This document shows positions 6,875 through 44,929 of a DNA stretch of 64,000 nt, piece by piece. Source of the DNA: Methanomethylovorans sp. (lineage in GTDB: Archaea > Halobacteriota > Methanosarcinia > Methanosarcinales > Methanosarcinaceae); assembly GCF_036802725.1 (NCBI RefSeq), contig NZ_DAIRVT010000002.1; one strand, given 5' to 3'. Position 1 is the first letter of the stretch. Every line of letters begins with the position of its first letter. The notes beneath the pieces are model-generated. The model was not told the DNA's origin and made no database searches. It was given only the letters and a program-made list of their open reading frames with translations. A program made the translations under genes and the position numbers.

Positions 6875-7121
6875 ACTAATACCTCCCGCGTTCCCCTCAA
6901 TGGTAAGGCAGGAACATTGTAACATATTGCACAAAAACTAAGATGTATTTATATTTTGCGAGTCCCGGATGATAAATCATTATTAATATGATGGTTTTAA
7001 TAAAAACAGAAAATTATATTTGTATATGTATTTTAATCAAACAAAATCATAACAAAAGTAGAATACTGATCTTTTTTGTTGATATCAGTGAACAGATCGT
7101 TCATTATAAGGAAATAAATGT

Positions 7122-7147
7122 CAATACCTGCGCAATTGCAGGTATTG
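7122..7147 (-). terminator. perfect 10-bp stem / 6-nt loop hairpin directly 3' of leuB
   Basis: CAATACCTGC-gcaatt-GCAGGTATTG at 7122-7147, 4 nt after the leuB stop (7152-7154). Followed on the transcript by the T-rich ACATTTATTTCC. Confidence 0.4.
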
Positions 7148-7151
7148 GATC

Positions 7152-8279
7152 TTACATAGAAGAAACTATTCTTGCAATATCGTTACCTACATCGGATGTG
7201 GTTGATGTACCACCCATATCATAGGTCTTTACCTTACTGTCAAGGATGTTCTTTTCAATAGCAGCAACTATAGCATCTGCTGCATCTTTTTCTCCAAGCT
7301 GTTCCAGCATAAGGGAACCTGCCCAGATCGTAGCTATAGGGTTTACCTTATTTTGTCCCTTGTACTTTGGTGCAGAACCATGTATTGGCTCGAACATACT
7401 CGTACCCTCGGGATTAATATTGCCTCCCGGAGCGAGTCCAAGACCGCCCTGTACCATTGCGCCGAGGTCTGTGATTATGTCACCAAACATGTTAGGAGTG
7501 ACAACTACATCGAACCATTCCGGGTTTTTCACAAACCACATGGTAATTGCATCCACATAGTTAAAGTCGGTTGTTATTTCTGGATATCCCGAGGCTATGT
7601 CCTGGAACTCCTGTCTCCAAAACCCATATATATCGGAAAGTACATTCGCCTTGTCCACTGAGGATACGTGTTTCTTTCTTTTCATAGCAAGATCAAAAGC
7701 GTATTTGATCACTCTGCGGGTTCCTTCCTTTGAGATCATTCCTATCTGGTAAGCGATCTCTTCACTATCTGTTTCAATGTCTAGGCCGAACTTAGCAGAA
7801 TACAGGTTTCTTTCAACCTCGAGCAGGTTCTTGCTGACTCCCTTTTTAGCTTTTCCGCCAATGCCTATGTAGAAATCTTCAGTGTTCTCTCTTACCACAG
7901 TGAAATCTATGTCTTTTGGGGTCTTGTCTTTTACAGGTGTCCACACACCCTCAAGCAATTTTATGGGCCTGAGGTTCACGTACTGGTCGAAATAGAACCT
8001 TGCTGCCAGAAGAATCCCTTTTTCCAGAACCCCCGGAGCAACTCTTGGATCTCCGATAGAACCAAGGTATATCACAGGGTAATTGGAGAGTTCTTTGAGC
8101 GTATCGGAGGAGATCAATTCTCCGGTTTCAAGGTAATGATCTGCTCCATGGGGGAAATCCACCCATTCAACATCGAACCCGAATTTCTCGCCTGCTGCAT
8201 CTATAACCTTCTTACCTTCAGCAACTATCTCTGGCCCGATACCATCGCCGGGTATAGCTGGAATCTTATACTGTGTCAT
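7152..8279 (-). CDS. leuB: 3-isopropylmalate dehydrogenase (isocitrate/isopropylmalate/tartrate DH family)
   Basis: 375 aa. [34 protein letters not shown] and [10 protein letters not shown] are beta-decarboxylating dehydrogenase signatures. Adjacent to a leuD-like gene. A homoisocitrate or tartrate DH function is not excluded. Confidence 0.75.
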
Positions 8280-30592: not shown

Positions 30593-31483
30593 ATGACAAG
30601 TATAATGCAGGATGATATTCTGGAGAAATATCTAAAGGCAGGCGAGATACTATCCAGGGTGAGAAGTGAAGCAAAGGATAAGATAAAAGTGGGTGCAAGT
30701 CTGCTTGAAGTAGCGGAGTTCGTGGAAAACAGGACCATAGAGCTTGGAGCCGATGGTTCAGCGTTCCCATGTAATATCTCACGGAACGATGAAGCTGCCC
30801 ATGCCACACCAATGGCAGGTGATGAGTCGGTTTTTGGAGAAGATGTGGTGAAGCTGGATATCGGGGTTCACGTGGATGGCTATATTGCTGACTCTGCCAT
30901 CACAGTGGATCTCACAGGTAAGCATGGGGATCTCGTCAAAGCCTCAGAAGCTGCCCTTTATGCTGCTATAGATACTGTAAAAAGTGGGGTTAATACTGCA
31001 CAGCTGGGTTCTGTGATCGAAGACACTATTGTAAACCTTGGTTTCAGGCCAATAGTCAATCTTACAGGTCATGGAGTTGCCAGGTATATTGCCCATACTC
31101 ATCCCAGTATACCCAATCGGCGTATTGATCACGGTTCTGTGCTCACGGCCGGAGATGTGATAGCTATCGAACCCTTTGCTACTGATGGTGCGGGAAAAAT
31201 AATAGATGGTTCATGGTCAGAGATATTCAGTGTCATAGGAAACAAACCTGTGCGTCTGCCAGCTGCCCGTAATCTTTTGAAAGAGATAGAACCATATAGG
31301 ATGTTGCCATTCGCCAAGAGGTGGCTCAAGACCGAAAAACTTGACTTTGCTCTTATGCAGCTTGCTAAATCAGGTGTGATCACTTCTTATCCGGTACTCA
31401 AGGAAGTTGCGGGCGGTCTTGTGTCCCAGACGGAACATACGCTTATTGTTACCGAGGACGGTTGTCAGGTGACCACTCTTTAA
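30593..31483 (+). CDS. map: methionine aminopeptidase, type 2 (archaeal)
   Basis: 296 aa. FPCNISRNDEAAH, DIGVHVDGYIADSA, LTGHGV, and the C-terminal SQTEHTLIVTEDG. Confidence 0.9.
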   Translation: MTSIMQDDILEKYLKAGEILSRVRSEAKDKIKVGASLLEVAEFVENRTIELGADGSAFPCNISRNDEAAHATPMAGDESVFGEDVVKLDIGVHVDGYIADSAITVDLTGKHGDLVKASEAALYAAIDTVKSGVNTAQLGSVIEDTIVNLGFRPIVNLTGHGVARYIAHTHPSIPNRRIDHGSVLTAGDVIAIEPFATDGAGKIIDGSWSEIFSVIGNKPVRLPAARNLLKEIEPYRMLPFAKRWLKTEKLDFALMQLAKSGVITSYPVLKEVAGGLVSQTEHTLIVTEDGCQVTTL

Positions 31484-32259
31484 TGAGGGATAGGTTGAAT
31501 ACTCCACTTTTAGCATTTTCATTGCTTTTTTTGTTTATGATACTTCCAGCGAACGCAACCTTCACCTGGGAAAACAATATTACTGTTGGATATGACGAGG
31601 TCCAATGGATGTATACGGAGACCTATGATGAAGCCAATTCTATCATCTACAAAGACTACGTCGATATGTCGGTGGGTAACCGGGATGGCTTCATAAATGC
31701 ATGGGAGGTTCTTAAAACAGATGTGAATACCAGGTCTGCCCTACAAAATTCTATCATTGAGCAGATGGATGTAATTGTGAATGGCTCTTCTGAATACATC
31801 GTGCTAACAGATGTAAATTCCCGGATGTCCCCTGAATTGTTGGGTCCGGTAATGCAGGCAGAGGTTATTATGAATATCTACACGACCAATTACCGCGTTG
31901 TAGATCCGTTTTTAGAAGTTGGGAACAGCAGTATAGGTTTCATTGGTGAAAAAAACACTCCTATAGTTATCAATATGCATAAGGGGATATCTGTGAATTC
32001 TACTGAAGGTATCGATAATGTATCTGTCAGCAACAATGGACAGGTTGTAAAGATCGCGGGTATTTTTGGTTCGACTGGAAAAGCAACAGTTTATTTCCAC
32101 TTGGAGGAGGCTGAAGATATCGTTGCCTCAGTCCCGGAAGTCACTGAAGAGGGTCTTTCAGGTGAAGGACGGATATTGGGGGATGAGCCATATCATGATT
32201 TCTCTCTTGCTGGAAGGATATTCCCTTCTTTAAGGATATGCAATCCCGAAAGTGTTTGA
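31483..32259 (+). CDS. hypothetical secreted protein
   Basis: ATG 31483 overlaps the map stop (TAATG). Signal-like LLAFSLLFLFMILPANA. Several NxS/T sequons. Confidence 0.5.
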   Translation: MRDRLNTPLLAFSLLFLFMILPANATFTWENNITVGYDEVQWMYTETYDEANSIIYKDYVDMSVGNRDGFINAWEVLKTDVNTRSALQNSIIEQMDVIVNGSSEYIVLTDVNSRMSPELLGPVMQAEVIMNIYTTNYRVVDPFLEVGNSSIGFIGEKNTPIVINMHKGISVNSTEGIDNVSVSNNGQVVKIAGIFGSTGKATVYFHLEEAEDIVASVPEVTEEGLSGEGRILGDEPYHDFSLAGRIFPSLRICNPESV

Positions 32260-32311
32260 ATAAAGGAATTAATCTTTATAGTCCATTTAATTAATGTTGA
32301 GGCAATAGAAT

Positions 32312-32599
32312 ATGATGATCGAACAGATTAAACTAAAAAAAGGTATTGCCATAGGTCTGAACATTCAAATGCAGCATGCATCCTTGCTTGTAGTGAAAGC
32401 AGATTTGGGATTCGTTATGTGTGGTTATCTGGATATGGCTACAGCTGAGAAGCTGGGAGATGTGGCTGTACGGGTTTCAGGGGTCAGCACATTTGAAGAT
32501 GTTCTCACTGCAGAAGTCAAGTCAGTAACTCCTAAAGCTAAAGAACTTGGCATTGCAGTGGGCATGAAGGCTGTAGATGCCCTGGAGCTAATGTTCTGA
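32312..32599 (+). CDS. DUF1805 (YunC-like) protein
   Basis: 95 aa. LLVVKADLGFVMCGYLDM...A is typical of the family as I recall it. Confidence 0.65.
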   Translation: MMIEQIKLKKGIAIGLNIQMQHASLLVVKADLGFVMCGYLDMATAEKLGDVAVRVSGVSTFEDVLTAEVKSVTPKAKELGIAVGMKAVDALELMF

Positions 32600-32684
32600 A
32601 TTTATACCAATATTTTTATTACCCTTTATTATCTCAACAGATTAACACTTGCATAGTATTAAATACTCTTAATATATTATTAAA

Positions 32685-33632
32685 TTGAAAATAATTTTGA
32701 TCTTAAGCGGGGATATTACTTTGAGTTCGGAAAAAGGTTTCTTAAAGACTTATGCTCCAATCTTTGCTATGGCTGGCATTATATTGGCTGTCCAGTTTCT
32801 ATCTTTGTTGCTGGCACAACCTATGAATGCTGAAGGTATGCAGGCTTTTGAGGACCCGGACTCTACAGCCAATAGTTTGTACTACATCGCAATCATCCTT
32901 GTGTTCACTTTCTTCCTGCTCATAGCACTGAAGAAAAATATGCAATGGGTCATTCAGCTTGTAATACTACTTGCAGTGGCTTCTACTGTATATTATGTGT
33001 TCATAGCTCTATTATCGCTGTTGACGGATTCAAACACGGCAATAAATGCTGTTTCTTTGTTCATGGCAATAGTTCTTACTGTTCTGCTGTACAAGTTTCC
33101 GGAGTGGTATGTGATAAACACTATTGGCTTGATCATAGGAGCAGGTGCAAGCGCCATCTTCGGCATTTCCCTTTCAATAATCCCAGTACTTGTTTTGCTA
33201 TCACTTCTCGCTATCTATGATGCGATCTCCGTCTACAAGACAAAGCACATGATAGACCTTGCTGAAGGTGTTATGGACCTGCGTTTACCCATACTTTTCA
33301 TTATTCCTAAGAAACTGAACTATTCCTTTATCAAGGACACTTTTAAGAAAGAAGATGGCGAAGAAAGAGAAGCTTTTTTCATGGGTCTGGGTGATGCAGT
33401 AATGCCTACCATTCTGGTAGTTTCTGCTAATATTTTTCTAGATTCACCTTTGAAATATATGGGTATTTCATATCCCTCCATAGGTGCCATGATTGGAACA
33501 CTAATAGGATACGCTGCTCTTATGGTATTCGTAATGAAAGGGAAACCACAGGCAGGCTTGCCATTCCTTAACACAGGTGTTATACTTGGATACGTAGCAG
33601 GTGTACTGATCACAGGTGGATCTTTCTATTAA
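32685..33632 (+). CDS. presenilin/signal-peptide-peptidase homologue (PSH-type intramembrane aspartyl protease)
   Basis: The catalytic YD (LLAIYDAISVYKTKHM) and GxGD (FFMGLGDAVMP) motifs sit in adjacent TMs, and there is a C-terminal PAL-like GLPFLN. Closely resembles the archaeal presenilin homologue I remember from Methanoculleus. The exact start is uncertain. Confidence 0.8.
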   Translation: MKIILILSGDITLSSEKGFLKTYAPIFAMAGIILAVQFLSLLLAQPMNAEGMQAFEDPDSTANSLYYIAIILVFTFFLLIALKKNMQWVIQLVILLAVASTVYYVFIALLSLLTDSNTAINAVSLFMAIVLTVLLYKFPEWYVINTIGLIIGAGASAIFGISLSIIPVLVLLSLLAIYDAISVYKTKHMIDLAEGVMDLRLPILFIIPKKLNYSFIKDTFKKEDGEEREAFFMGLGDAVMPTILVVSANIFLDSPLKYMGISYPSIGAMIGTLIGYAALMVFVMKGKPQAGLPFLNTGVILGYVAGVLITGGSFY

Positions 33633-33648
33633 TATTTTTTAATTTTCA

Positions 33649-34122
33649 TCATCTCTGCTCTGGCAGTTCAGAATTAAAATTACAGAACATACAAGAGGGG
33701 TCCTTTCCTTCTACAGTAGACGCAAATTCAGAATCTATGGCACGGGTACCCTCTGCAAGTATGGAAGCATTGGCTACGGTACTGCTAATAAGGATCGTAT
33801 CGAATATCTCTTCCCTGCTCACTCCGAGTCTTTTGGCAGCCCTTATGTGTGTTTTAAGACAATGGCCGCACTTGAGGGCAGAGGCAACAGCAATACTGAT
33901 AAGTTCCACGGTCTTTGGGTCCATACGCTTGAACTCACGCATAATGCTGTTCGTATATATCATTCTGGAGATAAAGAGTTCAGGCATATCCTTAATGAAA
34001 TTTACTATATAGGGGACTTCTCCATATTGTTTCTTCATGTCCTCCAGCATTTTTTCAACGACTTCTTCCGGCTCTTCGTTAAGAAGTTCTTTGATCTTTT
34101 CTATTTGCACGTTGCACCTCAC
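33649..34122 (-). CDS. carboxymuconolactone decarboxylase (AhpD-like) family CxxC protein
   Basis: ALKCGHCLKTH is the AhpD-type CxxC..H motif. GTG 34122 overlaps the mmp7 stop by 4 nt. An alternative GTG at 34110 is preceded by GAGGTG with a 4-nt spacer. Confidence 0.75.
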   Translation of the reverse strand: MRCNVQIEKIKELLNEEPEEVVEKMLEDMKKQYGEVPYIVNFIKDMPELFISRMIYTNSIMREFKRMDPKTVELISIAVASALKCGHCLKTHIRAAKRLGVSREEIFDTILISSTVANASILAEGTRAIDSEFASTVEGKDPSCMFCNFNSELPEQR

Positions 34123-35054
34123 ATCTCTATGCCCACTTCAGATTTCCTTTTCACCTTCACAAGTATGTAGTTCTTCATTTTTGAGGGTGTAATAGTTGCA
34201 ACATCTCTAAGGTGGATGTTATCCTGCAATTCCATATCTTCAACCTTCTTATGGAAATCAGCATAAGGGAGTTTAATGCGCAGTCCATCTAATTGCAGCG
34301 TGAGCGGCGCAGGGGTATATACGCTTTCTATCTCAGGGATCTGTTCCTGTACCTCTTTCATGATCCTTGCAGGCAGGACGGCAAGTGGGTCTCTGGCAAT
34401 ATCCTCTCTCATTTTTTCCACGATTATCCCCACTTTCTCACTCATAACATCCAGGCCCCCCAGTTCATCACTGTGCCTTAGCCTGTGAGCGACCCTGCCG
34501 ATGTTCCCTATGTACATATCGGCACCAGGCACTTCTTCAGTCTTAAGGTCCGGCCCTCCTGTGGCAACGATGGGTATCTTTATACCTTCAAAGAGTTTAG
34601 GTTTCTTATTGATTATACAATCCCGGAAGGTACCAAAAGAGAACAGGGCAATATCATGCTCATTTATTAGTCTTCTTTCATAATCTGCAGAAAGTGCAAC
34701 TCTTCTTCCCATGCCTCTGGCAAGTCCTATCATAGTGGTGTTAGCGCCTCCCCGTCTCAGGAATTCAGCTATATCACAGGCAGAATGCGGCAGATGATGA
34801 GACGCAAGCGTAGGTGAGACAACGGCTATTTCAGTTCCTGTAAGGGGAGCTCTGGATATCTTTCCAAGAAGATCTTTGGCAAGCTGCTCAATAAGATGTA
34901 CATCATCTCTGGGTACGAGCATCACAAGAGTAACCTCTGTGGCAGCCGGTGTTTTCTGGATGAGGTATCCTCCCAGATCTTCCAACAGTTCCAATATAAG
35001 CGTATGCCTGTGTATTCCACCTTCATATATGTAAGGTTCAAGCACTGCTGCCAA
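34119..35054 (-). CDS. mmp7: methanogenesis marker protein 7
   Basis: 311 aa. The N-terminus YIYEGGIHRHTLILELLEDLGGYLIQK, the size, and the position in the atwA/mmp block match marker 7. Confidence 0.8.
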   Translation of the reverse strand: MAAVLEPYIYEGGIHRHTLILELLEDLGGYLIQKTPAATEVTLVMLVPRDDVHLIEQLAKDLLGKISRAPLTGTEIAVVSPTLASHHLPHSACDIAEFLRRGGANTTMIGLARGMGRRVALSADYERRLINEHDIALFSFGTFRDCIINKKPKLFEGIKIPIVATGGPDLKTEEVPGADMYIGNIGRVAHRLRHSDELGGLDVMSEKVGIIVEKMREDIARDPLAVLPARIMKEVQEQIPEIESVYTPAPLTLQLDGLRIKLPYADFHKKVEDMELQDNIHLRDVATITPSKMKNYILVKVKRKSEVGIEM

Positions 35055-35058
35055 GAGC

Positions 35059-35652
35059 TTACCCTCCCTTTATCTTTTCAAGCATTTGGTGTCCTTGCTG
35101 CACCCATTCTGGTTTCATGGCATCTTCGGATGCTACGAAAATAAATTCATTGCTGTTAAGTGAGTGATAACGTACCCTGAACCCTTCAGGAGTTCCTCTT
35201 ATAGCCATTTCGACAAGCCTGGAAAGCAATGTGCGTTTTGGGTCGAATATGGCCATTTCTTTTATGGCCTCTATCTCAGTGTCCATATTTTCCACGTTTA
35301 CATTTATGGTCTTCCTGTCCTGTTGAATGACTTTTCCGCGTCCATATTTTGCCCACAGTTTCTCCAATAGGTCAGGCAGGTACTTCTCATCTCGCAGGAC
35401 TATCTGTATCTCATTCCTGGTGACAGCTCCAATGTTAACATCTGCAAAGTCCGATGTTTTTACTAGTGGAGGACTGCCTCTCAGAATGATGGCCATCTGG
35501 AATAGTGAGTCTTCAGGCGTTATGATAGCATATATCCTGCCAATAGAGTTGGCAAGACCAAGCTCCGAAATGACATCTGAGAGTATTGACCTGTAAGCTT
35601 CGGCCTCTTCAGGTATTTTAGTTTCCACCTTGAAGATCTCCAGAGGCTCCAT
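35059..35652 (-). CDS. mmp17: methanogenesis marker protein 17
   Basis: 197 aa. Assigned by size and position between markers 15 and 7. Confidence 0.7.
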   Translation of the reverse strand: MEPLEIFKVETKIPEEAEAYRSILSDVISELGLANSIGRIYAIITPEDSLFQMAIILRGSPPLVKTSDFADVNIGAVTRNEIQIVLRDEKYLPDLLEKLWAKYGRGKVIQQDRKTINVNVENMDTEIEAIKEMAIFDPKRTLLSRLVEMAIRGTPEGFRVRYHSLNSNEFIFVASEDAMKPEWVQQGHQMLEKIKGG

Positions 35653-35657
35653 ATTTC

Positions 35658-36899
35658 TTATTCCTCCACAAATCCCGATGCCAGCAATGCACTTCCCACA
35701 GCACCTATGAGGTGGGAGTTCGGTGGCACAAGCACATCTATTTTAAGCAGACTGCTCAAGGCTTTTGGAACGCCTTCTATCAGTGAAGAGCCACCCACAA
35801 GGATCAGTGGCTCTTTTACATCCACTTCCTGCAATTGCTGCTCAAAGATCTGTTCCACCACACTATGACATGCCGCAGCAGCCACATCCTCCGGTCTTGA
35901 TCCTTTCGCCAGTGAGTTTACAAGTGACTGGATACCAAAGACAATGCAGTAACTGTTCATATCGACTTTTTCCTGCATACCTTTTACAGCCAGTGCACCC
36001 AGTTCAGTAATATCGACACCAAGTCTCTTTGCTGTCATATCCAGAAAACGCCCGGATGCACCTGCACAGATACCACCCATGGTGAACATGCCTGGAATTC
36101 CATCTTCCACTGATATTGCCTTGTTATCCATTCCACCAATGTCGATAACGGTTGCAGAGCCTTTTTGCTTGTTTGCCAGGTACACTGCACCTTTGGAATT
36201 GACAGTGATCTCTTCCTGTACCAATTGCGCCTTAAAATGCTCTCCTACCAGGAACCTGCCATAGCCGGTGGTTCCAATAGCCTGGATCTCTTCGGCCTTT
36301 ACTCCAGCTTCCTCAAGTGCATGGTTGAAAGCTTCTGTTGCACTATCAATGACCTTTATAGTGGGCACCCAACCCTGGCCAATGATCTTGTCATTTCTCA
36401 TTATCACAGCTTTTGTAGTGGTCGAACCAGAGTCTATGCCTGCAGTAAGACCAGTCTGATGCTCACGGGCAAGCAGATGTTTCCTTCTTGCGATGGTGGT
36501 AAGAGCTTCCATTCTTGTCATAAGGGTGGCTGCTGTTGTCCTTTCGGTGAAAGAATAACTGATAACAGGAATACTGGAATGCTTATTTATATATCTTCTA
36601 ACTTCGTTCCTTACAATAGCAGCTTCAGCACACCTGAAACATGATGTGATGAACACTCCATCCACGTCTGCAATGCCTTCCACCACTGCCTGGGCTCTTG
36701 CCATCATCAGACGCAGATCAGGACTTGCAGCCTCTATTCCGAAATCCCTTCCGATCGTGTCAAGAGAAGCTATATCTATTTCAGGAAAGACCAGTTTTGC
36801 ATTGACACTGGAAGTCACTTTTTCCAGTTCACCCTGGACACCTGCATATTCAGAACCGCATGAGACCAGCGCCACTTTTACTTGCTTCTCCGTGCTCAT
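35658..36899 (-). CDS. mmp15: methanogenesis marker protein 15 (N-terminal Cys domain + BcrAD/BadFG/HgdC-type ATPase)
   Basis: [13 protein letters not shown] and [12 protein letters not shown] phosphate motifs. [10 protein letters not shown] and NSYCIVFG match the two cluster-binding Cys regions of 2-hydroxyacyl-CoA dehydratase activators. Confidence 0.85.
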
Positions 36900-37348
36900 G
36901 ATCTAGCCTCCGTTGACAGTGATTTCAGGAACTCGGCTATCTTGTAGACAAATTCCTTGCCTTCCTCTTCATTTCTGGGGTACTCTACTTCAAGGATAGG
37001 TATCTCTTTTTGGCGTATCAGATATTTGGTAAGCTCGTTCGTCCTGGCACATCCCATACACCCAAAGGCCATGGTTGCCTCATTCACGATGATAGCAGCT
37101 TCTGCCTCATCTATCATGGGTCCTACTATAGCCATCCTCCCCCTTACACCCGCGGGTACTTCCACTGCTGCATATTTCAGACCCATTTTAGGCTCTTCAG
37201 CCGTTATATTCAGAGGTGGGGAGTCTACTCCTACAGTATTTACCCTCTCTTTGATCTTTTCCATCATCGCAAGGGGCTTGTGGCCGAAGCGCTCTACTAG
37301 ATCAGAAAGTATCAGGCTGTTGATAGGATAAATGATCACTTTTGCCAT
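36896..37348 (-). CDS. mmp5: methanogenesis marker protein 5
   Basis: 150 aa. Shares a 4-nt ATGA overlap with mmp15. Assigned by size and position. Confidence 0.7.
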
Positions 37349-37357
37349 TATATTGCC

Positions 37358-37789
37358 TCATAAATTTGATTCAATGATCTCCTTCAGCTTCTTTACTTCT
37401 ATTTTTTCAGCACGGTGTATCTCAGCGGGTGGAACATGTTTATCGTAAGCATCAAGTGCTTTTCCGATCATGGGTAGCATCTGGACTTCCTCTCTCAGGT
37501 AATGGAATCCTGGTCTGGGTCCGCCACCCCTTACAGACCGGCATCTTCTCTCATCCCCGGGGTGAAACCCACGCTCTTTCACAAAGATATGATTCCTGTC
37601 CATAGCCCTCAGTTCATCAACTACCTTATCCACAGCAGTCCTCGGACCAGTAACCATTGTTCCAAAACAAGTTTCTTTGATAGTTATGGATGTTTCTGAT
37701 TCATATACTTTCATTGCGGCATCTATGGGTAGAACGCTGTCAGAACTTATGACCACAATTTTAGTGATAACATCTTCCTCATTACTCAT
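37358..37789 (-). CDS. mmp6: methanogenesis marker protein 6
   Basis: Start set to ATG 37789 (MSNEEDVITKIVVISS), preceded by GGAGGGGGG and overlapping the mmp3 stop by 8 nt. The track's start at 37819 is the alternative. Confidence 0.7.
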   Translation of the reverse strand: MSNEEDVITKIVVISSDSVLPIDAAMKVYESETSITIKETCFGTMVTGPRTAVDKVVDELRAMDRNHIFVKERGFHPGDERRCRSVRGGGPRPGFHYLREEVQMLPMIGKALDAYDKHVPPAEIHRAEKIEVKKLKEIIESNL

Positions 37790-39350
37790 GGCCCCCCTCC
37801 CTGTTACGCTCGATGACATAGATCTTATCTCCTTCTTTGAAGTTCCGGAGCTTTTCTATGTCAAGGATACGCCCAATGATATTTGTACTTATGAACTTCT
37901 CTCCGGTAGGTCCGAAAAGGTCATCGTCCTTCGTTTTGACACCTACCATTCCCATACGCTTAGCTGCCTGGTTTGTAACACCTATCTCCCCGGATGCAAC
38001 CTTTTCCTTTGGTGTGTTCTCCGGCAGGATCTCCTTATATCTCTCTGCAGGTTTTTCAGCTTTGAAGATATAGGTATTCTCATACATCATTATCAAAGGC
38101 ATTATTCCTACAGGCCTGAACTGCAGGCCAATGGCATGTCTGAAAAAGTCCAGGGTTATGGGTGCAGCATTGTCATACAACTCTATGCTAACCATCTTTG
38201 ATCCATCAACTCCTGTAGCCCTGACAGTACCCGCCCGAAGTATCTCAATGGTAGTATCGGGCTCCTGGGCCACAATTACTGCTTCATCAGCGACATCCCC
38301 TTCTCTTATAAGTTTCACACCATATGGAGCCAATTCCTCTTCAGCCTCGCGGAAACTCTTGCCATGCAGCATTATCTGTGGTGGTGTAGTGTTTATTAGA
38401 AGCCGGTGTCCAACTTCTGCCATGTTCACAAGTTCCATGCCCTGTTCCACGTGTCCGATCACCGAATGCAGAATGCTGGCTGTTCTGTCGTCGGTGGAGA
38501 TAAAAGCCTTTCCTGATCCATATCCCACGGTGCGCAGGAATACACTCCCTCTCGTGCGCGGTTCATAGTTTTCATATACAGGAAGCTCTCCAATAAGAGC
38601 ATGGTCTGATATAAAAGAGCTGGAGACCATATCTACTTTGAAACTTCCACTCCTTATGACCGCAAAAAAATGTTCTGCTCCGCGGGGAGATTCAGCTGAC
38701 ATTGCCACATCCAGAAATGTGAATACTTTTTCCCCATCTTCGAGGGGAACCGTAAGATCAGTAGTAAGAAGATGCTCACCTGTTTGTTTCCATGATATCA
38801 CAGGCTTTATCTCAATTATCCTGTCTTTCTTTTCCAAGTTGTCCAATAAACTTTTTCCACTTACTACTCTTCCAAAGGAACCTTCCAGGGGAGCTCCATA
38901 TTCTGCAGAATGTCTATCCTTAGTTATTATCAAGTGCGTATTATGAGGATCTCCTCCACCCGCTGCAAAAAGAAGTTCATATTCTCTATATGTGCCTGTC
39001 TCTCTCCTGGGAACCATTTCACTTGCAAAGGGACCAAATGCCACTGCATCCCGGCTGATCCATCGCAGAGGCATATCTCTGTACTCTCTAAACTTGTCTG
39101 CCCACTGTTTCTTCGAAGATGAATGTTTTTCAAAGAGTTCGATCACGAACTCTCCGGAGGTGGTTATTATCCGATATTCCACTACATTTTCTTCTTGTTC
39201 GATCTCAGACCTTTTCAGTATTCCTATTGAAATACCTTCTTTATAAGGTGCGTCAGACACCCGGATGGCATCCCCAAGAGTAGCTCTTTCAGGCAACTTT
39301 ATTTCAATTCCGTTGACCTCTACTGTTATTTCGCCATCCATATCTGACAC
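37782..39350 (-). CDS. mmp3: methanogenesis marker protein 3
   Basis: 522 aa. The N-terminal beta-grasp-like ITVEVNGIEIKLPERATLGDAI, the size, and the position next to atwA match marker 3. Confidence 0.8.
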   Translation of the reverse strand: MSDMDGEITVEVNGIEIKLPERATLGDAIRVSDAPYKEGISIGILKRSEIEQEENVVEYRIITTSGEFVIELFEKHSSSKKQWADKFREYRDMPLRWISRDAVAFGPFASEMVPRRETGTYREYELLFAAGGGDPHNTHLIITKDRHSAEYGAPLEGSFGRVVSGKSLLDNLEKKDRIIEIKPVISWKQTGEHLLTTDLTVPLEDGEKVFTFLDVAMSAESPRGAEHFFAVIRSGSFKVDMVSSSFISDHALIGELPVYENYEPRTRGSVFLRTVGYGSGKAFISTDDRTASILHSVIGHVEQGMELVNMAEVGHRLLINTTPPQIMLHGKSFREAEEELAPYGVKLIREGDVADEAVIVAQEPDTTIEILRAGTVRATGVDGSKMVSIELYDNAAPITLDFFRHAIGLQFRPVGIMPLIMMYENTYIFKAEKPAERYKEILPENTPKEKVASGEIGVTNQAAKRMGMVGVKTKDDDLFGPTGEKFISTNIIGRILDIEKLRNFKEGDKIYVIERNREGGHE

Positions 39351-39366
39351 CTCTTTGCATAATTCT

Positions 39367-40983
39367 CTATTGATCTGCGTTCGCTTCGATCCTTTCGGTT
39401 TCGGTAAGTTGTGCGATCACTTTCCTTGGCTCCCCTATGTCCACAATCTCTCCATTTCTCATAAGGGCTACCCTGTCACATATCTCTTCCAGGAAGTCCA
39501 TGTCATGGGATACGATCACAAATGTATTCCCCAACTCCTCCCTTGCTTTGAGAATGGATCTTGTGACATCTTTTTTAGTAATTGGGTCCATTGTACCTGT
39601 TGGTTCATCCATTACTATTATGTTTGGCTCCTTCATTAATATCTGGGCAAGTGCCACCCTGTGTCGCTCTCCTTCACTAAGCTCGTCAGGCATCTTGGAT
39701 AATATCGATTTTGCCTTTTCTTCTGTGAAACCAGTGGTTTTCAAAGTAATGATCGCCTTTCTTACTGCCAGTTCATAAGGCAGGTCAATACCGATAGACT
39801 CTGTGAGGTTATCTATTATATTGCGGTGGGTGTAAAGACTGTATTCCTGATGCAATATGCCCATGTACTGAAGTGCGCGTCCCCTGCATTCCGGCCCAGG
39901 TTTTTTCATATCGATCCACTCATCTCCTACCCTCGTAACCACTTCGCCGCTGGTGGGCTGAACTATTCCCATGAGGATCTCTGAAGTAGTGGTCTTCCCC
40001 GCACCGCTGACCCCGGCAAGGCCGAATATCTCACTTTCTCTTACTTCAAAAGAGATATCACTTACGGCATTGACGACTCCTCTTGTAACCGATATGTACT
40101 TCTTTCGGAGATTTTGCACTTTTATTATAGGGTCGCCAATGGCAACGTCTTGCCTCTTCTCTAGTGCACATGCCATGCCGGTAAATTTCTTTGCCATTTC
40201 GCAGGGGTCTCCCTCGGCGACCATGGCCCCATCTTCAAGGATGATTGCCCTGTCAGCAATATCCTCAACAACTTCAGACCAATGAGAGGTTATGATCATT
40301 GTCATATTGTAATCCTTGACAGTCCTCTCGATAACATCATGTACTATCTTTGCAGTCCTCGGATCAAGTGTGCCGGTAGGTTCATCTGCTAGCAGCAGCA
40401 TTGGATTTCTCACAAGCTGGCGGGCAAGGACGACTCTCTGTTTCTCACCACCGCTCAGGTCTCGTGCTATATGCATCATACGGTGAGATAATTGTACTTT
40501 TTCCAGCAGCTCCATCGCCTTTGAAATGACATCTTCATCCTGCTGTCCAATTTCGGTAAGGGAATTTACTACATTTGTTATGACCTTCTCATCACCATAC
40601 AGTGCAAAAGTGCGCTGCAGCATTATAGCTATCCTCTTGGTGATGTCTTTTCTTTTGTGGTCATGAATTGACATCTCAACAAAATCAGCATCAAAAGGTA
40701 GTAATTTTTCTCCGGGACATGCTGGACATTCACTTCCTATTTTGCTCGGAGGTTCGATATGACCGCATTTTTCACAGGTTGCAAGATGGTATATCACCTG
40801 CCCGCTTATACTTTCATATTCTTCTACTCCGCGAAGTACATGCATTAGAACAGTTTTACCTGCTCCGCTTCGTCCCAATATACCGATGACCTCTCCTTCG
40901 TTTATAGTAAGGTTTATGTCCTTCAGAACTTTTAAGCCGTCAAAATCCACATTAAGGTTTTTTACCTCGATGAACGCTGCCAT
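39367..40983 (-). CDS. atwA: methyl-coenzyme M reductase system component A2 (tandem ABC ATPase)
   Basis: Two ABC cassettes: GRSGAGKT / LSGGEKQR / LLADEPTG, and GVSGAGKT / LSEGERHR / IVMDEPTG. A CxxC...CxxC insert (CEKCGH..CPACPG) sits in cassette 1. Confidence 0.9.
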
Positions 40984-41214
40984 TTATGTTCCTCCGTTTA
41001 TGTACCGGCTGGAATTCTCCTAGTTCTGACTACCAGTTCAAATTACTTAATGGTATTGTATGGTATGTACTAAACTGCTAACAACTTCTGCCGGACATTT
41101 ATAATTAGTTTTTAAATTTACTTTTTGTAGAGTATCATCTGCATTATATCAAACTATACATAAACGTAACGCATATTGTTTTCGCCGTTAACAATAAAAA
41201 TCTGTCCCCTGCTC

Positions 41215-42090
41215 TTACCTATGGTCAGAAGCATTCAATGAGTCCACAATATCTATAACCTCTATGATATCACTGATCACATGATCAGCGGCTTCCAATA
41301 ATCTTTGTGGTCTTTTATCCCCTTGCTGGATAGTGACTATCCCCACATCAGCAACCTCCAAGGCGCGAATATCGTTAACACCATCGCCAATCATCAGTAC
41401 TATATCATATTTCTTTTTAAGGGCCAGTACAATATTAGCCTTCTCATCTGTAGTGGCTATATCGAAAACATTTGTAAGTGGGATGCAAAGTTTTTCAGCT
41501 ACTCTCCTTAGTGAACGCATGGTGTCGCCAGATGCTATGTATGTATCGATGCCCCTGCTATGCAAAAGCTCTATTGTTCTGGGAGTATTGGAGTATAATT
41601 TTCCTGCTGTGCTCAGTACATATGGGATGAACTGCAACTGTCCATCCACGATCAGACCTGTTGCAATATAGTAGCTTTCAGGGCAACTCCGGTGTGCAAA
41701 AGCCAGGACTTCTATCACATCTCCCACTACGACCTTTTGGTCGTTGATTATTTCCATTGCCTCCTCTGTGCTCATCGGCCCACTGGAACAACTGATGTCT
41801 ATTTTTAATCCATTATCAGCTATGAACCTCCGGAGTTCTGTTTTTGGATCAGTGTTCTCAATGGCAACAGGTTCAGCATGCATTACCACAAGAGCTCTTC
41901 TGGGTCTCTCTGCTACCAGCATGATACTTTCTATGTTTTCAAGAATATTGCCCGTTGATGTCTCTTTTGCCACACGGTACATGCGTAGCAGTGTTCCTGC
42001 GCTATCAAATACCACTGCTATCTTCTTTTGCATGGGGCCGGTTTGTCCCTCATTGTATTTATCGTTATGCAGCTCATATTTATTGATCAA
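41215..42090 (-). CDS. soluble P-type-ATPase-like HAD phosphatase
   Basis: FDSAGTL (DxxGT phosphorylation-site-like motif) and MIGDGVNDIRAL (GDGxND hinge). No TM segments. The real start is probably MQKKIAVVFD (ATG 42033). Confidence 0.7.
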   Translation of the reverse strand: MINKYELHNDKYNEGQTGPMQKKIAVVFDSAGTLLRMYRVAKETSTGNILENIESIMLVAERPRRALVVMHAEPVAIENTDPKTELRRFIADNGLKIDISCSSGPMSTEEAMEIINDQKVVVGDVIEVLAFAHRSCPESYYIATGLIVDGQLQFIPYVLSTAGKLYSNTPRTIELLHSRGIDTYIASGDTMRSLRRVAEKLCIPLTNVFDIATTDEKANIVLALKKKYDIVLMIGDGVNDIRALEVADVGIVTIQQGDKRPQRLLEAADHVISDIIEVIDIVDSLNASDHR

Positions 42091-42114
42091 TTAACTATTT
42101 GTATTGCGTAATGT

Positions 42115-42861
42115 ATGTTCATATGGTGCTCAATGTTTCAAACATGTCCTGCTTTCATAGGGTTGCTATTCTTTGTCTGTTTTTTTACTTCAGTGGCAGT
42201 ACATGGTGTGTATGCAATGGAGGATAATGCTTATCCTGCGCTTACTACAATACCTTGGGACCATTCCCCGATCACAGTATACATTGATAATGTTAATGTT
42301 CCAGAACATTACAGTCCCACATATAAAGAACAGGTAGAATCTGCTATGACATACTGGGAAAATGGGGGGAATGGCCATCTGGCATACGAACCCGAATTCA
42401 GGCTGGTTGATTCTGAAAGTGAAGCTGACATCTATATTATGTGGGTGGAGAATCTGGAAAAGGACGCGGGCGTTGAGAACGGTGTTGCAGGTTTTGCAAG
42501 GCCTTATGAAATCAATGGGAAGTATGTGCGAGTGGATATCGTCCTGGAGGTGGGCAATTATGAAGGTTATGCATGGAAACAATATGGTGATGCCAACATG
42601 CGTGAACTGGCAAAGCACGAGCTGGGGCATGCTCTTGGTCTTGGCCACAGTAACGACAGGCGTGATATCATGTATCCCACCTATGATCAAAAGGATAACA
42701 TCGACCCACTACTTGTAGAGAGGACCAGGCCTTTCATATATGCTGCTGTCATAGTTTCCGCAATTACAGTGTCATTATCTGTCATCAACTGGTTACGATA
42801 TCGTGGAAAAAGACGTTCTATCGAAGATAAGTTCCTGGGTGGCAAACATGGAAGATCTTGA
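42115..42861 (+). CDS. matrixin-like zinc metalloprotease with C-terminal TM anchor
   Basis: HELGHALGLGHS (HExxHxxGxxH) followed by the Met-turn DIMYP. N-terminal signal/TM and C-terminal TM IYAAVIVSAITVSLSVINWL. Confidence 0.75.
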   Translation: MFIWCSMFQTCPAFIGLLFFVCFFTSVAVHGVYAMEDNAYPALTTIPWDHSPITVYIDNVNVPEHYSPTYKEQVESAMTYWENGGNGHLAYEPEFRLVDSESEADIYIMWVENLEKDAGVENGVAGFARPYEINGKYVRVDIVLEVGNYEGYAWKQYGDANMRELAKHELGHALGLGHSNDRRDIMYPTYDQKDNIDPLLVERTRPFIYAAVIVSAITVSLSVINWLRYRGKRRSIEDKFLGGKHGRS

Positions 42862-43210
42862 ACTCCTGTGTCGTGAAATGTTAAGATACCTTAAAGGTGA
42901 GCAAGTAGATTTTTCATGGTGTAAAGTTGATCTTTCCCATTTATCTGATTTTGAGAAAGATGTGCTTGAGCAGACAAGACACATTCCCTACGGACATACA
43001 ATTACCTATGGAGAACTGGCTGCGCTAATAGGCAGAAGAGGAGCTTCCAGAGCAGTAGGAAGTGCTTTAGCAAAAAACCCATATCCTATAATCATTCCAT
43101 GCCACAGGGTAGTGTCAAGTAAAGGCATGGGAGGATTTTGTGGAAGTAAGGATCATGAAAGTTTATCTTTGAAACGCAAACTACTGGAACTTGAAGGAGT
43201 TAAAATATGA
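42848..43210 (+). CDS. ogt: methylated-DNA--protein-cysteine methyltransferase, C-terminal-domain-only form
   Basis: IPYGHTITYGELA...NPYPIIIPCHRVV (PCHR active site). ATG 42848 gives 120 aa and overlaps the matrixin gene by 14 nt. Confidence 0.8.
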   Translation: MEDLELLCREMLRYLKGEQVDFSWCKVDLSHLSDFEKDVLEQTRHIPYGHTITYGELAALIGRRGASRAVGSALAKNPYPIIIPCHRVVSSKGMGGFCGSKDHESLSLKRKLLELEGVKI

Positions 43211-43222
43211 AGGTGAGAATGA

Positions 43223-44929
43223 ATGTTCGGCTGGACAGGGAGAACTATCTTTGTTGACCTTAGTTCTCATTCGGTCACTGAATCAAGAACGGGTGTAAAG
43301 CAAGCCAGAGAATATCTGGGAGGTCGGGGTTTTGGTATAAAGTTGATGTATGAATTTGCTGACCCGGATGTGGATCCCTTATCACCTGACAATCCACTGG
43401 TGTTTGCTACAGGTCCGCTAACAGGGACAGCAGCTCCGATGTCCGGACATTATTCAATTACCACGAAATCCCCACTTACTCATACTATATTTGATTCCAA
43501 TGCCGGAGGACACTTCGGAAAGGCAATGAAATATGCGGGTATAGATGCCCTGGTCATTACGGGAAGGTCCGATACCCCTCTCTATCTATCCATCTTTGAT
43601 GAAGATGTAGAACTTATCTCTGCAGAACATCTTTGGGGAAAAGATACAAGGGAAACTACTTTAGCGCTGAAGGAAAAGGGAAGTGTGGTATGTATAGGCA
43701 GGGCAGGTGAAAAAAAAGTACGCTTTGCAAACTTTGTGAGCGACAACCTTTATTCAAGTGGTCGGGGTGGTCATGGGGCTGTAGCCGGCTCCAAGAACCT
43801 GAAGGCCGTAGTGGTAAAAGGTACTAATGACCCTCTTATAGCAGACCCGCAAGCATTTGAAAAGGCTATAGCCAGTGCACAGAGGTTACTACAAGCAAAT
43901 CCAGTAACCTCCAAAGGTTTATCTGTATATGGTACTTCCTTTATGGTCAATGTCATGGACCATCTTGATATCCTCCCTTCCATGAATTTCAGGGAACAGA
44001 ATTTCCATTATGCTGGAAATATCTCAGCAGAACAACTCTCAGCGTCTTACAAAAGTAAGAAAACACCATGTGATAACTGTCCTCTTGGATGTAGGAGGTT
44101 GCTTGAAAACGGTAGTCCAATACCTGATTATGATGCTTTATGGGCTTTTGGTCCAGCTGTGGGTAACACTGATCAGGAATCCATTGTAAAGGCTAATGAA
44201 CTTTGTTATGTTAATGGTGTAGATCCTATCTCATGTGGAGCTACTATCGCATCATATCTTGAAATATCTGGTGGGAAAATGGATCCTGCACATCTCTTGC
44301 AAACAGTTTCTGAAATATCACAAGGTATCAGTTCACTCGGTGAAGGTTCTTTATCCTATATGATCAAGCAGGGCGTAAAAGAACTTAGCATGAGTTCCAA
44401 AGGTCTGGAAATACCCGGCTATGATCCCAGGAGTATTTCAGGGCTTGCTCTTGCATATGCCACTTCAAATCGGGGGGCATGCCATATGAGTGCATTTATG
44501 GCAGGACCCGAGTTATTGGGTAAACCGGTGGGGCTTGACAGATTTGTATTGCAGGGCAAAGCTGGCTTTGTTAAGTTGTTCCAGGATCTTGCAGCAGTTA
44601 TTGATTCTGTTGTCCTGTGTCCGTTTGTGAGTTTCGCTCTGAGCGAAGGGGAGATAGCTTCTTTGATCAGTGCTGCAACGGGAGTCTCATATTCTTCTGA
44701 GGACTTGCTGAGGGTGGGTGAGAGGATATGGAATCTTGAAAGATCGTTCAATCTCAGAGCAGGTTTTACCTGTGAGGACGATACCTTACCCAAGAGAATG
44801 CTTTCAAAAGGTGGTATTTCTGAAGGAGAATTTAAAAGAACTATTGCTGAGTATTACCAATTAAGGGGATGGGACAGTCTGGGAGTTCCAACTACAGGCA
44901 AGCTTGAACAACTTGGGATAACATTTTAA
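43223..44929 (+). CDS. aor: aldehyde:ferredoxin oxidoreductase family tungsto/molybdopterin enzyme
   Basis: 568 aa. N-terminal GWTGRTIFVDLS...GGRGFG and the CDNCPLGC cluster region. Confidence 0.85.
   Translation: MFGWTGRTIFVDLSSHSVTESRTGVKQAREYLGGRGFGIKLMYEFADPDVDPLSPDNPLVFATGPLTGTAAPMSGHYSITTKSPLTHTIFDSNAGGHFGKAMKYAGIDALVITGRSDTPLYLSIFDEDVELISAEHLWGKDTRETTLALKEKGSVVCIGRAGEKKVRFANFVSDNLYSSGRGGHGAVAGSKNLKAVVVKGTNDPLIADPQAFEKAIASAQRLLQANPVTSKGLSVYGTSFMVNVMDHLDILPSMNFREQNFHYAGNISAEQLSASYKSKKTPCDNCPLGCRRLLENGSPIPDYDALWAFGPAVGNTDQESIVKANELCYVNGVDPISCGATIASYLEISGGKMDPAHLLQTVSEISQGISSLGEGSLSYMIKQGVKELSMSSKGLEIPGYDPRSISGLALAYATSNRGACHMSAFMAGPELLGKPVGLDRFVLQGKAGFVKLFQDLAAVIDSVVLCPFVSFALSEGEIASLISAATGVSYSSEDLLRVGERIWNLERSFNLRAGFTCEDDTLPKRMLSKGGISEGEFKRTIAEYYQLRGWDSLGVPTTGKLEQLGITF

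Follow-up and report, generated by a model that had tools for sequence, protein, structure and literature searches.

We analyzed a 64,000-nucleotide stretch of DNA from Methanomethylovorans sp., a member of a genus of methylotrophic methanogens (NCBI RefSeq assembly GCF_036802725.1, contig NZ_DAIRVT010000002.1). The whole stretch is referred to here as the window. Its minus strand harbors, from position 40983 to position 33649, eight consecutive open reading frames (ORFs), all at the coordinates given in the original prediction, which had been made from the sequence of the window. Seven of them encode component A2 (atwA) and the methanogenesis markers Mmp3, Mmp6, Mmp5, Mmp15, Mmp17, and Mmp7, and the eighth encodes a protein of the AhpD/CMD family (Table 1). 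In our best overall explanation, the locus is very probably the Methanomethylovorans ortholog of the operon for activation of methyl-coenzyme M reductase (MCR) that is found in the Methanosarcinales.

Gene order and predicted transcription unit

Families were assigned with the NCBIfam equivalog hidden Markov models (HMMs) and their curated cutoffs, and Pfam was used as a second library. The models for component A2 and for markers 3, 6, 5, 15, 17, and 7 all matched above their cutoffs, in agreement with the identities that had been proposed for these ORFs. Mmp7 is 99% identical to a protein from a Methanomethylovorans metagenome-assembled genome (MAG), and the AhpD-like protein shares 93% identity with a protein of Methanomethylovorans hollandica DSM 15978.

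Table 1. Genes and leader elements of the locus and neighboring genes, in window coordinates. Spacings to the next gene are from sequence reading.
Feature	Position	Strand	Family match or conservation	Spacing to next gene
atwA (component A2)	39367..40983	-	TIGR03269, 863 bits (cutoff, 517)	Gap of 16 nt
mmp3	37782..39350	-	TIGR03268, 570 bits (cutoff, 234)	Overlap of 8 nt, behind GGGAGGGGGG
mmp6 (DUF2102), 143 aa	37358..37789	-	TIGR03272, 180 bits (cutoff, 126)	Gap of 9 nt
mmp5 (DUF2112)	36896..37348	-	TIGR03271, 247 bits (cutoff, 140)	ATGA overlap
mmp15	35658..36899	-	TIGR03286, 724 bits (cutoff, 456)	Gap of 5 nt
mmp17 (DUF2113)	35059..35652	-	TIGR03291, 168 bits (cutoff, 67)	Gap of 4 nt
mmp7, TTG start	34119..35054	-	TIGR03274, 426 bits (cutoff, 349); Pfam MCR_C also matches	
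AhpD/CMD-family gene, 153 aa	33649..34110	-	TIGR00778 (ahpD_dom), 45 bits (cutoff, 27.8); PF02627 (CMD), 3.3e-14	
Leader block 1	41122..41204	-	84% invariant columns	
TTTAAAAACTAATTATAAAT in variable spacer	41097..41116	-	40% invariant columns	
Leader block 2	41036..41092	-	79% invariant columns	
HAD-IC/P-type-ATPase-like gene	41215..42090	-	TIGR01494, 66.9 versus 62.3 bits	
Matrixin-like metalloprotease gene	42115..42861	+		
MGMT gene, longest ORF	42803..43210	+		

An operon of this kind has been described in Methanosarcina acetivorans, in which component A2 (MA_3998) and six marker genes form a seven-gene "MCR activation operon." Reverse transcription-PCR (RT-PCR) spans all of its junctions, which shows that the genes are cotranscribed, and its expression is constitutive and approximately 40-fold lower than that of mcr. 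A clean deletion could be obtained for none of the seven genes, and, across genomes, the methanogenesis markers co-occur with MCR/ACR (bioRxiv 10.64898/2026.03.18.712670). MA3998 is also a long-standing constitutive reference gene for quantitative PCR. The seven-gene core of the window was thus correctly identified but is already described, and the window does not offer a new kind of system. The original prediction overstated the novelty of the system.

Synteny was evaluated in the best 80 loci, all of which are from Methanosarcinaceae, and counts are limited to loci that extend far enough to cover the genes concerned. The order A2-Mmp3-Mmp6-Mmp5-Mmp15-Mmp17-Mmp7 is kept in all 80 loci long enough for these genes. 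The gene order originally given for the window is found in Methanosarcina, in a locus from ANME-3 (L059), and in one from the Methanotrichaceae (L081). In particular, the operon of M. acetivorans consists of the same seven genes, their order and strand agree with those of Methanosarcina loci, the A2 motifs (K43, K329, and C70/C73/C86/C89) match those of M. acetivorans A2, and the leader element that we designate block 1 is present. The Methanosarcina operon differs in that leader block 2 is absent, in that the whole block of genes is inverted relative to its flanks, and in that mmp3 and mmp6 are separated by a spacer of ~250 to 320 nucleotides (nt), whereas the two genes overlap in the window. 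This spacer (positions 6878-7195 in locus L052, and likewise in other Methanosarcina) is AT-rich and non-coding, and no convincing ORF was found in it.

Four products of the locus are orthologs of proteins with a known place in the activation machinery. The activation complex of Methanococcus maripaludis, resolved by cryo-electron microscopy (cryo-EM), contains McrC, Mmp7, Mmp17, Mmp3, A2, and a DUF2098 protein (PMC12176620). It holds three L-cluster-like [8Fe-9S-C] clusters with ligands from McrC and Mmp7; the Mmp17 subunit adjoins the outermost cluster, FeSIII, and Mmp3 is a structural subunit (PMC12176620). The original prediction had named A2, McrC, Mmp3, Mmp7, and Mmp17 together with L-cluster-like cofactors, and this agrees with the publication, in which McrC copurifies with Mmp7, Mmp17, Mmp3, and A2. 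A2, Mmp3, Mmp7, and Mmp17 of the window are orthologous to the subunits of this complex (8S7V/8S7X/9H1L; PMC12176620), and the ligands of Mmp7 are kept. Mmp7, a McrC-like subunit that binds clusters, matches PDB 8s7v_H/9h1l at 4e-73, and its residues H87, C93, and C146 occupy the positions of H84, C90, and C143 in M. maripaludis. H87 and C146 correspond to FeSIII ligand positions and C93 to the Cys near FeSII, and C93 and C146 are the only two Cys residues of the protein. A2 contains two ABC_tran stretches (Pfam) with the Walker A motifs GRSGAGK43T and GVSGAGK329T, and an N-terminal zinc-binding motif, C70-x2-C73-x12-C86-x2-C89, as described for M. acetivorans A2.

The genomic arrangement differs among these organisms. 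In M. maripaludis the genes are dispersed (Mmp_0620, 0154, 0421, 0656), and two components of its complex, McrC and the DUF2098 protein, are not encoded in the locus of the window. In M. marburgensis, MCR-activation marker genes are clustered as in the window (MTBMA_c04360-c04410), but by the description in the paper A2 lies outside the cluster and nifB comes after it, whereas in the window A2 leads and the AhpD-like gene follows; Methanosarcina adds A2 to the Mmp locus that is clustered in M. marburgensis (PMC12176620). By the published mechanism, A2, Mmp3, Mmp17, and Mmp7 assemble on MCR with McrC, which is encoded elsewhere, in the mcr operon. The three [8Fe-9S-C]-like clusters wire electrons to F430, and ATP binding and hydrolysis by A2 remodel MCR so that Ni(II) becomes reducible to Ni(I).

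The junction sequences reproduced all of the spacings originally listed from atwA/mmp3 to mmp17/mmp7 (Table 1). A Shine-Dalgarno-like GGAGG or GAGGTG is found ahead of every start, and in the case of atwA GGAGG lies 7 nt ahead of the ATG. The mmp3 start is ambiguous, as translation may begin at GTG 39350 or at ATG 39341, which has a better Shine-Dalgarno sequence (GAGGTG-N6-ATG) and would leave a 25-nt gap. The mmp6 start originally chosen, ATG 37789, was kept and fits the annotation of the M. hollandica homolog, which is 143 amino acids (aa) long. The end of the operon had to be revised. Homologs of the AhpD-like protein in other genera have their start ATG at a position aligned with codon 5 of the longest ORF in the window, which begins at 34122. 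GTG 34110 is therefore the likely start of the gene. It is preceded at a distance of 4 nt by GAGGTG, which overlaps the stop codon of mmp7, and the 4-nt overlap with mmp7 that had been reported is replaced by an 8-nt gap.

With these starts, the longest intergenic space within the cluster is at most 25 nt, and we predict that in Methanomethylovorans one mRNA would carry all eight cistrons. On the sense strand, the first 650 nt past the stop codon of the AhpD-like gene contain no oligo-T terminator. This gene and the downstream presenilin-type protease gene are convergent, with stop codons 16 nt apart (33633-33648), and the operon transcript probably continues antisense into the protease gene. 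Mmp5, Mmp6, and Mmp15 had been described as obligatorily cotranslated with the core subunits. Tight coupling is indeed observed here, but the statement does not extend to methanogens in general, as the genes are dispersed in M. maripaludis.

Conserved leader upstream of atwA

The intergenic leader upstream of atwA is 231 nt long and has a GC content of 34%, versus 45% in the operon, and was rightly described as AT-rich. When conservation was scored as invariant columns among eight sequences of the Methanomethylovorans group, the leader resolved into two highly conserved blocks and a variable spacer between them (Table 1). The TATA-like TTTAAAAACTAATTATAAAT that had been pointed out is present, but it lies in this spacer; only 40% of its columns are invariant, versus 84% and 79% in the flanking blocks.

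Block 1 contains a T5 run just past the stop codon of the upstream HAD gene, GTTAAC (41192-41187), and ATGCGTTACGTTTATGTA (41174-41157), and its core motif is GTTAAC-N12-ATGCGTTAYGTTTATGTA. By blastn, 57 of 66 Methanosarcinaceae loci, representing all genera, including Methanosarcina, were found to carry the block 5' of atwA. The Methanotrichaceae locus carries a related AATGCATTATAAATATATA ~190 nt ahead of its start. The motif occurs once in the window. A metagenome scan identified 59 exact matches to the 18-mer ATGCGTTATGTTTATGTA; approximately 33 of these have the GTTMAC context, and all of the latter are found 5' of A2, between the HAD gene and A2. The matches without this context have unrelated surroundings. 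No regulon sharing the block 1 motif was found in the window or among the metagenome 18-mer matches.

Two of the metagenome contigs deserve mention. On L138 (48-65, minus strand), a full block 1-type motif, AGTTCACACTG...ATGCGTTATGTTTATGTA, is located at the contig end with the downstream gene cut off, and this is the sole extended-motif match whose target gene is not confirmable as A2. On L114 (946-1049), an unrelated contig, two ~70-nt units with the 18-mer ATGCGTTATGTTTATGTA and GC-rich palindromes alongside are present 86 nt apart. These units look like a repeat element unconnected with methanogens.

On the basis of this conservation, block 1 is the best candidate for the core promoter (transcription factor B recognition element [BRE]/TATA), probably combined with an operon-specific binding site. 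Transcription would begin from the family-wide conserved block around ATGCGTTAYGTTTATGTA, with the start falling ~25 nt downstream of TTTATGTA, near position 41130. A promoter at block 1 would result in a 5' untranslated region (UTR) of ~145 nt.

Block 2 consists of an inverted repeat, GTTTAGTAC...ACAATAC (41075-41053), followed by CCATTAAGTAATTTG (41053-41039). In other genera the repeat takes the form GTTTTGyr..yrCAAAAC. The repeat followed by CCNTTAAGTAATTTG is located 45 to 58 nt ahead of the ATG in Methanomethylovorans, Methanolobus, Methanococcoides, and Methanohalophilus, and block 2 was not found in the Methanosarcina loci. An RNA hairpin was considered and rejected; although 85% of cells pair, covariation is the same as in shuffled alignments (341 to 498 of 500 shuffles reach the observed values). 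An Rfam scan of positions 33000 to 42200 gave no match at E values of up to 1. Possible identities of block 2 include an operator, a second promoter (BRE/TATA), and an unstructured element of the 5' UTR, and it is indistinguishable from a DNA palindrome.

Mmp6, Mmp5, Mmp15, and the AhpD-like protein

The absence of an assigned role for Mmp5, Mmp6, and Mmp15, as remarked in the original prediction, was confirmed; all three, as well as the AhpD-like protein, are absent from the M. maripaludis cryo-EM structure (PMC12176620). Residues 152-408 of Mmp15 form an HgdC/BcrAD-type (ASKHA) ATPase domain (PF01869, 1.5e-66; TIGR00241, 311 bits) with PDB matches to 9gai_D (6e-31), 4eht, 1hux, and 7yyl_E. 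Among proteins of solved structure, it is most closely related to MbdQ of 3-methylbenzoyl-CoA reductase (6e-31), to the activators of 2-hydroxyisocaproyl-CoA and 2-hydroxyglutaryl-CoA dehydratases, and to the reductase of the double-cubane cluster protein (DCCP). In the alignment with 1hux, C278 and C318 of Mmp15 fall at C127 and C166, the Cys residues that bridge the inter-subunit [4Fe-4S] cluster of HgdC. Mmp15 thus shares the ATPase domain and both bridging Cys positions with HgdC/HadI, MbdQ/P, and DCCP reductase. Unlike these activators, it harbors an extra Cys-rich N-terminal domain of 150 residues (residues 1-150), in which C14, C87, and C90 are invariant, and its fusion partners are Mmp5/Mmp6 rather than HgdAB/BcrBC/DCCP-type acceptors.

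Mmp5, a small protein of the alpha/beta type, carries the motif FGCxGCARTNE, in which C100 is present in 21 and C97 in approximately 14 of 23 diverse representatives. Mmp6 has an N-terminal ferredoxin-like/PII-like domain, with C41 and C83 invariant. This domain is followed by an invariant Arg/Gly-rich loop, RRCRxxRGGGPRPGF, which is unmodeled in the AlphaFold2 model. The Mmp6 model matched PII-like and MJ1052 folds in Foldseek (E value, 5e-3; probability, 0.99). For the Mmp5 model, the best Foldseek match in the PDB had an E value of 0.25, and DCCP appeared only at a probability of 0.25. No sequence relatives of Mmp5 or Mmp6 were found in the PDB, and profile searches with Mmp5 and with the Mmp15 N-terminal domain against PDB sequences returned nothing significant. 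Homology between Mmp5 and the Mmp15 N-terminal domain was considered, as BLASTP gave a local match at CxxC...IP (E value, 0.002), and was rejected because the hhalign probability was just 6.9%.

An exhaustive phmmer search with Mmp5 gave only 89 representative clusters, and natural fusions are among them. Mmp6 and Mmp5 are fused in a Methanosarcina-like lineage (295 to 299 aa, several contigs) and, independently, in Archaeoglobales MAGs (259 aa, several contigs). Mmp5 and Mmp15 are fused through a Pro-rich linker in "Ca. Verstraetearchaeota" (577 to 598 aa, at least 10 members). As these pairwise fusions in three other lineages follow the mmp6-mmp5-mmp15 gene order of the window, we infer, by Rosetta-stone reasoning, that Mmp6, Mmp5, and Mmp15 would constitute one physical module.

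In our reading, the three proteins would make up a second, transient module around an ATPase of the HgdC/benzoyl-CoA reductase type. The module would dock at the Mmp7-Mmp17 face, where the outermost cluster is surface-exposed, and would inject very-low-potential electrons into this cluster in an ATP-driven manner from a ferredoxin or thiol donor. Electron injection is the most likely job of the three proteins and our preferred reading, because the characterized relatives of the Mmp15 ATPase domain all serve this function; it also fits the failure of the published complex when dithiothreitol (DTT) is used in place of Ti(III) citrate. With this replacement the purified complex did not activate MCR, and additional Mmp proteins are expected to be necessary for physiological activation (PMC12176620).

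In all 78 evaluable Methanosarcinaceae loci, which represent at least eight genera, the AhpD-like gene comes directly 3' of mmp7 and shares its strand. The gap between the two genes is 8 to 17 nt in Methanomethylovorans and ~25 to 45 nt in Methanolobus and Methanococcoides; in Methanosarcina it is ~130 to 150 nt, in contrast to the 8 nt of the window. A Methanotrichaceae MAG (L081) also shows this eight-gene arrangement, here with a gap of 18 nt, and all other neighbors are different. In the AhpD-like protein, the residues of the catalytic signature, E69, C81-x-x-C84, and H88, are invariant in 18 homologs. They line up with E118/C130/C133/H137 of Mycobacterium tuberculosis AhpD (1gu9_A), in an ungapped alignment of residues 67-114 with 116-163, and the two proteins share the CMD/AhpD signature. 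Unlike AhpD and MdrA, the protein of the window is short (153 aa), consists of a single domain, and has a conserved C-terminal tail, C140-x-x-C143; its gene, also unlike theirs, is genomically tied to mmp7 and is not accompanied by a gene for an AhpC or lipoamide-type partner, as neither an AhpC-like nor a lipoamide-related gene was found among the adjacent ORFs. MdrA (MA3736) of M. acetivorans is likened to the protein here by its family description as an AhpD-like disulfide reductase. Identities among the AhpD-like proteins range from 42 to 96%, a rate of divergence like that of Mmp3, Mmp6, and Mmp17. Our literature search found no paper in which an AhpD/CMD gene is connected with the operon for MCR activation.

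The AhpD-like CxxC protein would be a lineage-specific accessory of the Methanosarcinaceae and Methanotrichaceae that keeps thiol and zinc sites in the oxygen-sensitive activation machinery reduced. As A2 is reportedly oxygen sensitive, with a proposed Cys/Zn redox switch, a role as a dedicated thiol reductant is plausible. We can combine the two proposals into one, in which the AhpD-like protein would be an unrecognized, lineage-specific eighth component of MCR activation in the Methanosarcinales, acting as a dedicated thiol:disulfide oxidoreductase, and Mmp6-Mmp5-Mmp15 would be the missing ATP-driven "archerase" that reaches the -650 mV Ni(II)/Ni(I) couple. This joint claim is tentative, and we consider it unlikely that it holds in both of its parts.

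The operon is flanked by unrelated genes, a HAD/P-type-ATPase-like gene upstream on the same strand and the convergent presenilin-type protease (PSH) gene downstream. The HAD-IC/P-type-ATPase-like protein is soluble, without a membrane part, and contains GDGVND. In 65 loci, all from Methanosarcinaceae, its gene immediately precedes atwA and shares its strand, whereas in the Methanotrichaceae locus it is missing from the region upstream of A2. The gene may have a functional connection with the operon. The block from the HAD gene through A2 and Mmp7 to the AhpD-like gene is inverted as a unit relative to the SPP/PSH and M10 matrixin/MGMT/AOR (aldehyde:ferredoxin oxidoreductase) flanks (window positions 30593-44929 versus L001-L080). 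The inversion, which includes the HAD gene along with the operon, divides the Methanomethylovorans/Methanolobus arrangement from that of Methanosarcina, and the AhpD-like gene stays beside mmp7 in both. On the upstream side, when the longest ORFs are taken, those of a matrixin-like metalloprotease and of MGMT (O6-methylguanine methyltransferase) share 59 nt (Table 1); the true start of MGMT probably lies farther downstream.

Alternative explanations and significance

Several observations weigh against the readings proposed above, and some of them favor other explanations. As regards transcription, the cluster could consist of several units in Methanomethylovorans, split by internal promoters or terminators, for example, into atwA-mmp3 and mmp6 through the AhpD-like gene. 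Oligo-T is an archaeal termination signal, and the sense strand of the operon contains three runs of five or more T residues, all within mmp3 (38967-38971; T7 at 38664-38670; 38143-38147); from 38143 down to 33000 the sense strand is free of further runs. Partial termination within mmp3 is conceivable, and the T7 run together with internal promoters may break up the transcript. The long non-coding mmp3-mmp6 spacer of Methanosarcina implies that a break at this position is tolerated, and leader block 2 might be a second promoter. Nevertheless, mmp3 and mmp6 overlap in the window, intergenic spaces within its cluster never exceed 25 nt, and RT-PCR in M. acetivorans bridges every junction despite larger spacers, which makes a split operon improbable. 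As regards the AhpD-like gene, it is quite possible, if somewhat doubtful, that it is a syntenic passenger, encoding a general MdrA-type disulfide reductase or oxidative stress protein with no specific role in MCR activation. Orthologs are found away from mmp7 in Methermicoccus-like and other contigs, where they adjoin mch or TtuA-like genes (L083, L085, and L084). The spacer of ~145 nt in front of the gene in Methanosarcina is conserved and contains a T5 run and AT-rich boxes, and the gene may be separately transcribed there as a unit of its own. MdrA, another AhpD homolog of M. acetivorans, is reported to be a general protein disulfide reductase. Among the matches listed, the family is confined to Methanosarcinales-type names, whereas MCR activation is universal, and the AhpD-like protein therefore cannot be a core activation factor. 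The published operon definition, based on RT-PCR, also ends at seven genes (bioRxiv 10.64898/2026.03.18.712670). On the other hand, a passenger would not be expected to remain adjacent to mmp7 in 78 of 78 loci from at least eight genera, in a Methanotrichaceae locus where every other neighbor differs, and through an inversion with breakpoints just outside the AhpD-like gene. The gap of just 8 nt with a Shine-Dalgarno sequence overlapping the mmp7 stop, and a divergence matching that of Mmp3, Mmp6, and Mmp17, also argue for a link with the operon.

For Mmp6, Mmp5, and Mmp15, the structural basis is limited, as the AlphaFold2 models of Mmp5 and Mmp6 are only moderately confident (pLDDT of 70 and 67, respectively) and that of Mmp5 is without an informative structural match. 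The electron-injection role is drawn from homology and fusions, and cluster maturation or insertion fits the same data. In the latter case, Mmp15, Mmp5, and Mmp6 would be a cofactor maturation module for the ATP-driven delivery or insertion of NifB-derived [8Fe-9S-C] clusters into McrC and Mmp7. This would account for their being missing from a purified complex that, when supplied with Ti(III) citrate and ATP, still activates MCR, as well as for nifB following the Mmp cluster of M. marburgensis, and the conserved Cys residues (Mmp5 C100; Mmp6 C41 and C83; Mmp15 C14, C87, and C90) could hold a transient cluster. Two points make a maturation module rather unlikely. The characterized Mmp15-type ATPases (HgdC, HadI, MbdQ/P, and DCCP reductase) are all electron-transferring activators and not cluster chaperones, and the purified complex, besides being unable to use DTT, shows very low activity, findings that its authors attribute to missing partners that lower the electron potential. 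Electron injection thus remains our preferred reading of the three proteins.

Nearly all biological methane is made by MCR, and it is only now becoming clear how its nickel cofactor reaches the Ni(I) state. To this, our comparative work adds three leads rather than demonstrations: the grouping of Mmp6, Mmp5, and Mmp15, the linkage of the AhpD-like gene, and a better promoter assignment. The grouping tells which proteins to coexpress and to supply to the purified complex, whose activity is low. The conserved, operon-specific promoter/leader block provides a handle for the study or engineering of the constitutive low-level expression reported for the operon, and the AhpD-like oxidoreductase is an obvious candidate partner of the A2 ATPase, whose oxygen sensitivity has been reported. 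If our proposals are true, the tasks of the AhpD-like protein could include re-reduction of the Cys4-Zn switch of A2, re-reduction of other thiol ligands after exposure to an oxidant, or a feed of thiol electrons, and Mmp6-Mmp5-Mmp15 would give physiological donors access to the Ni(II)/Ni(I) couple.

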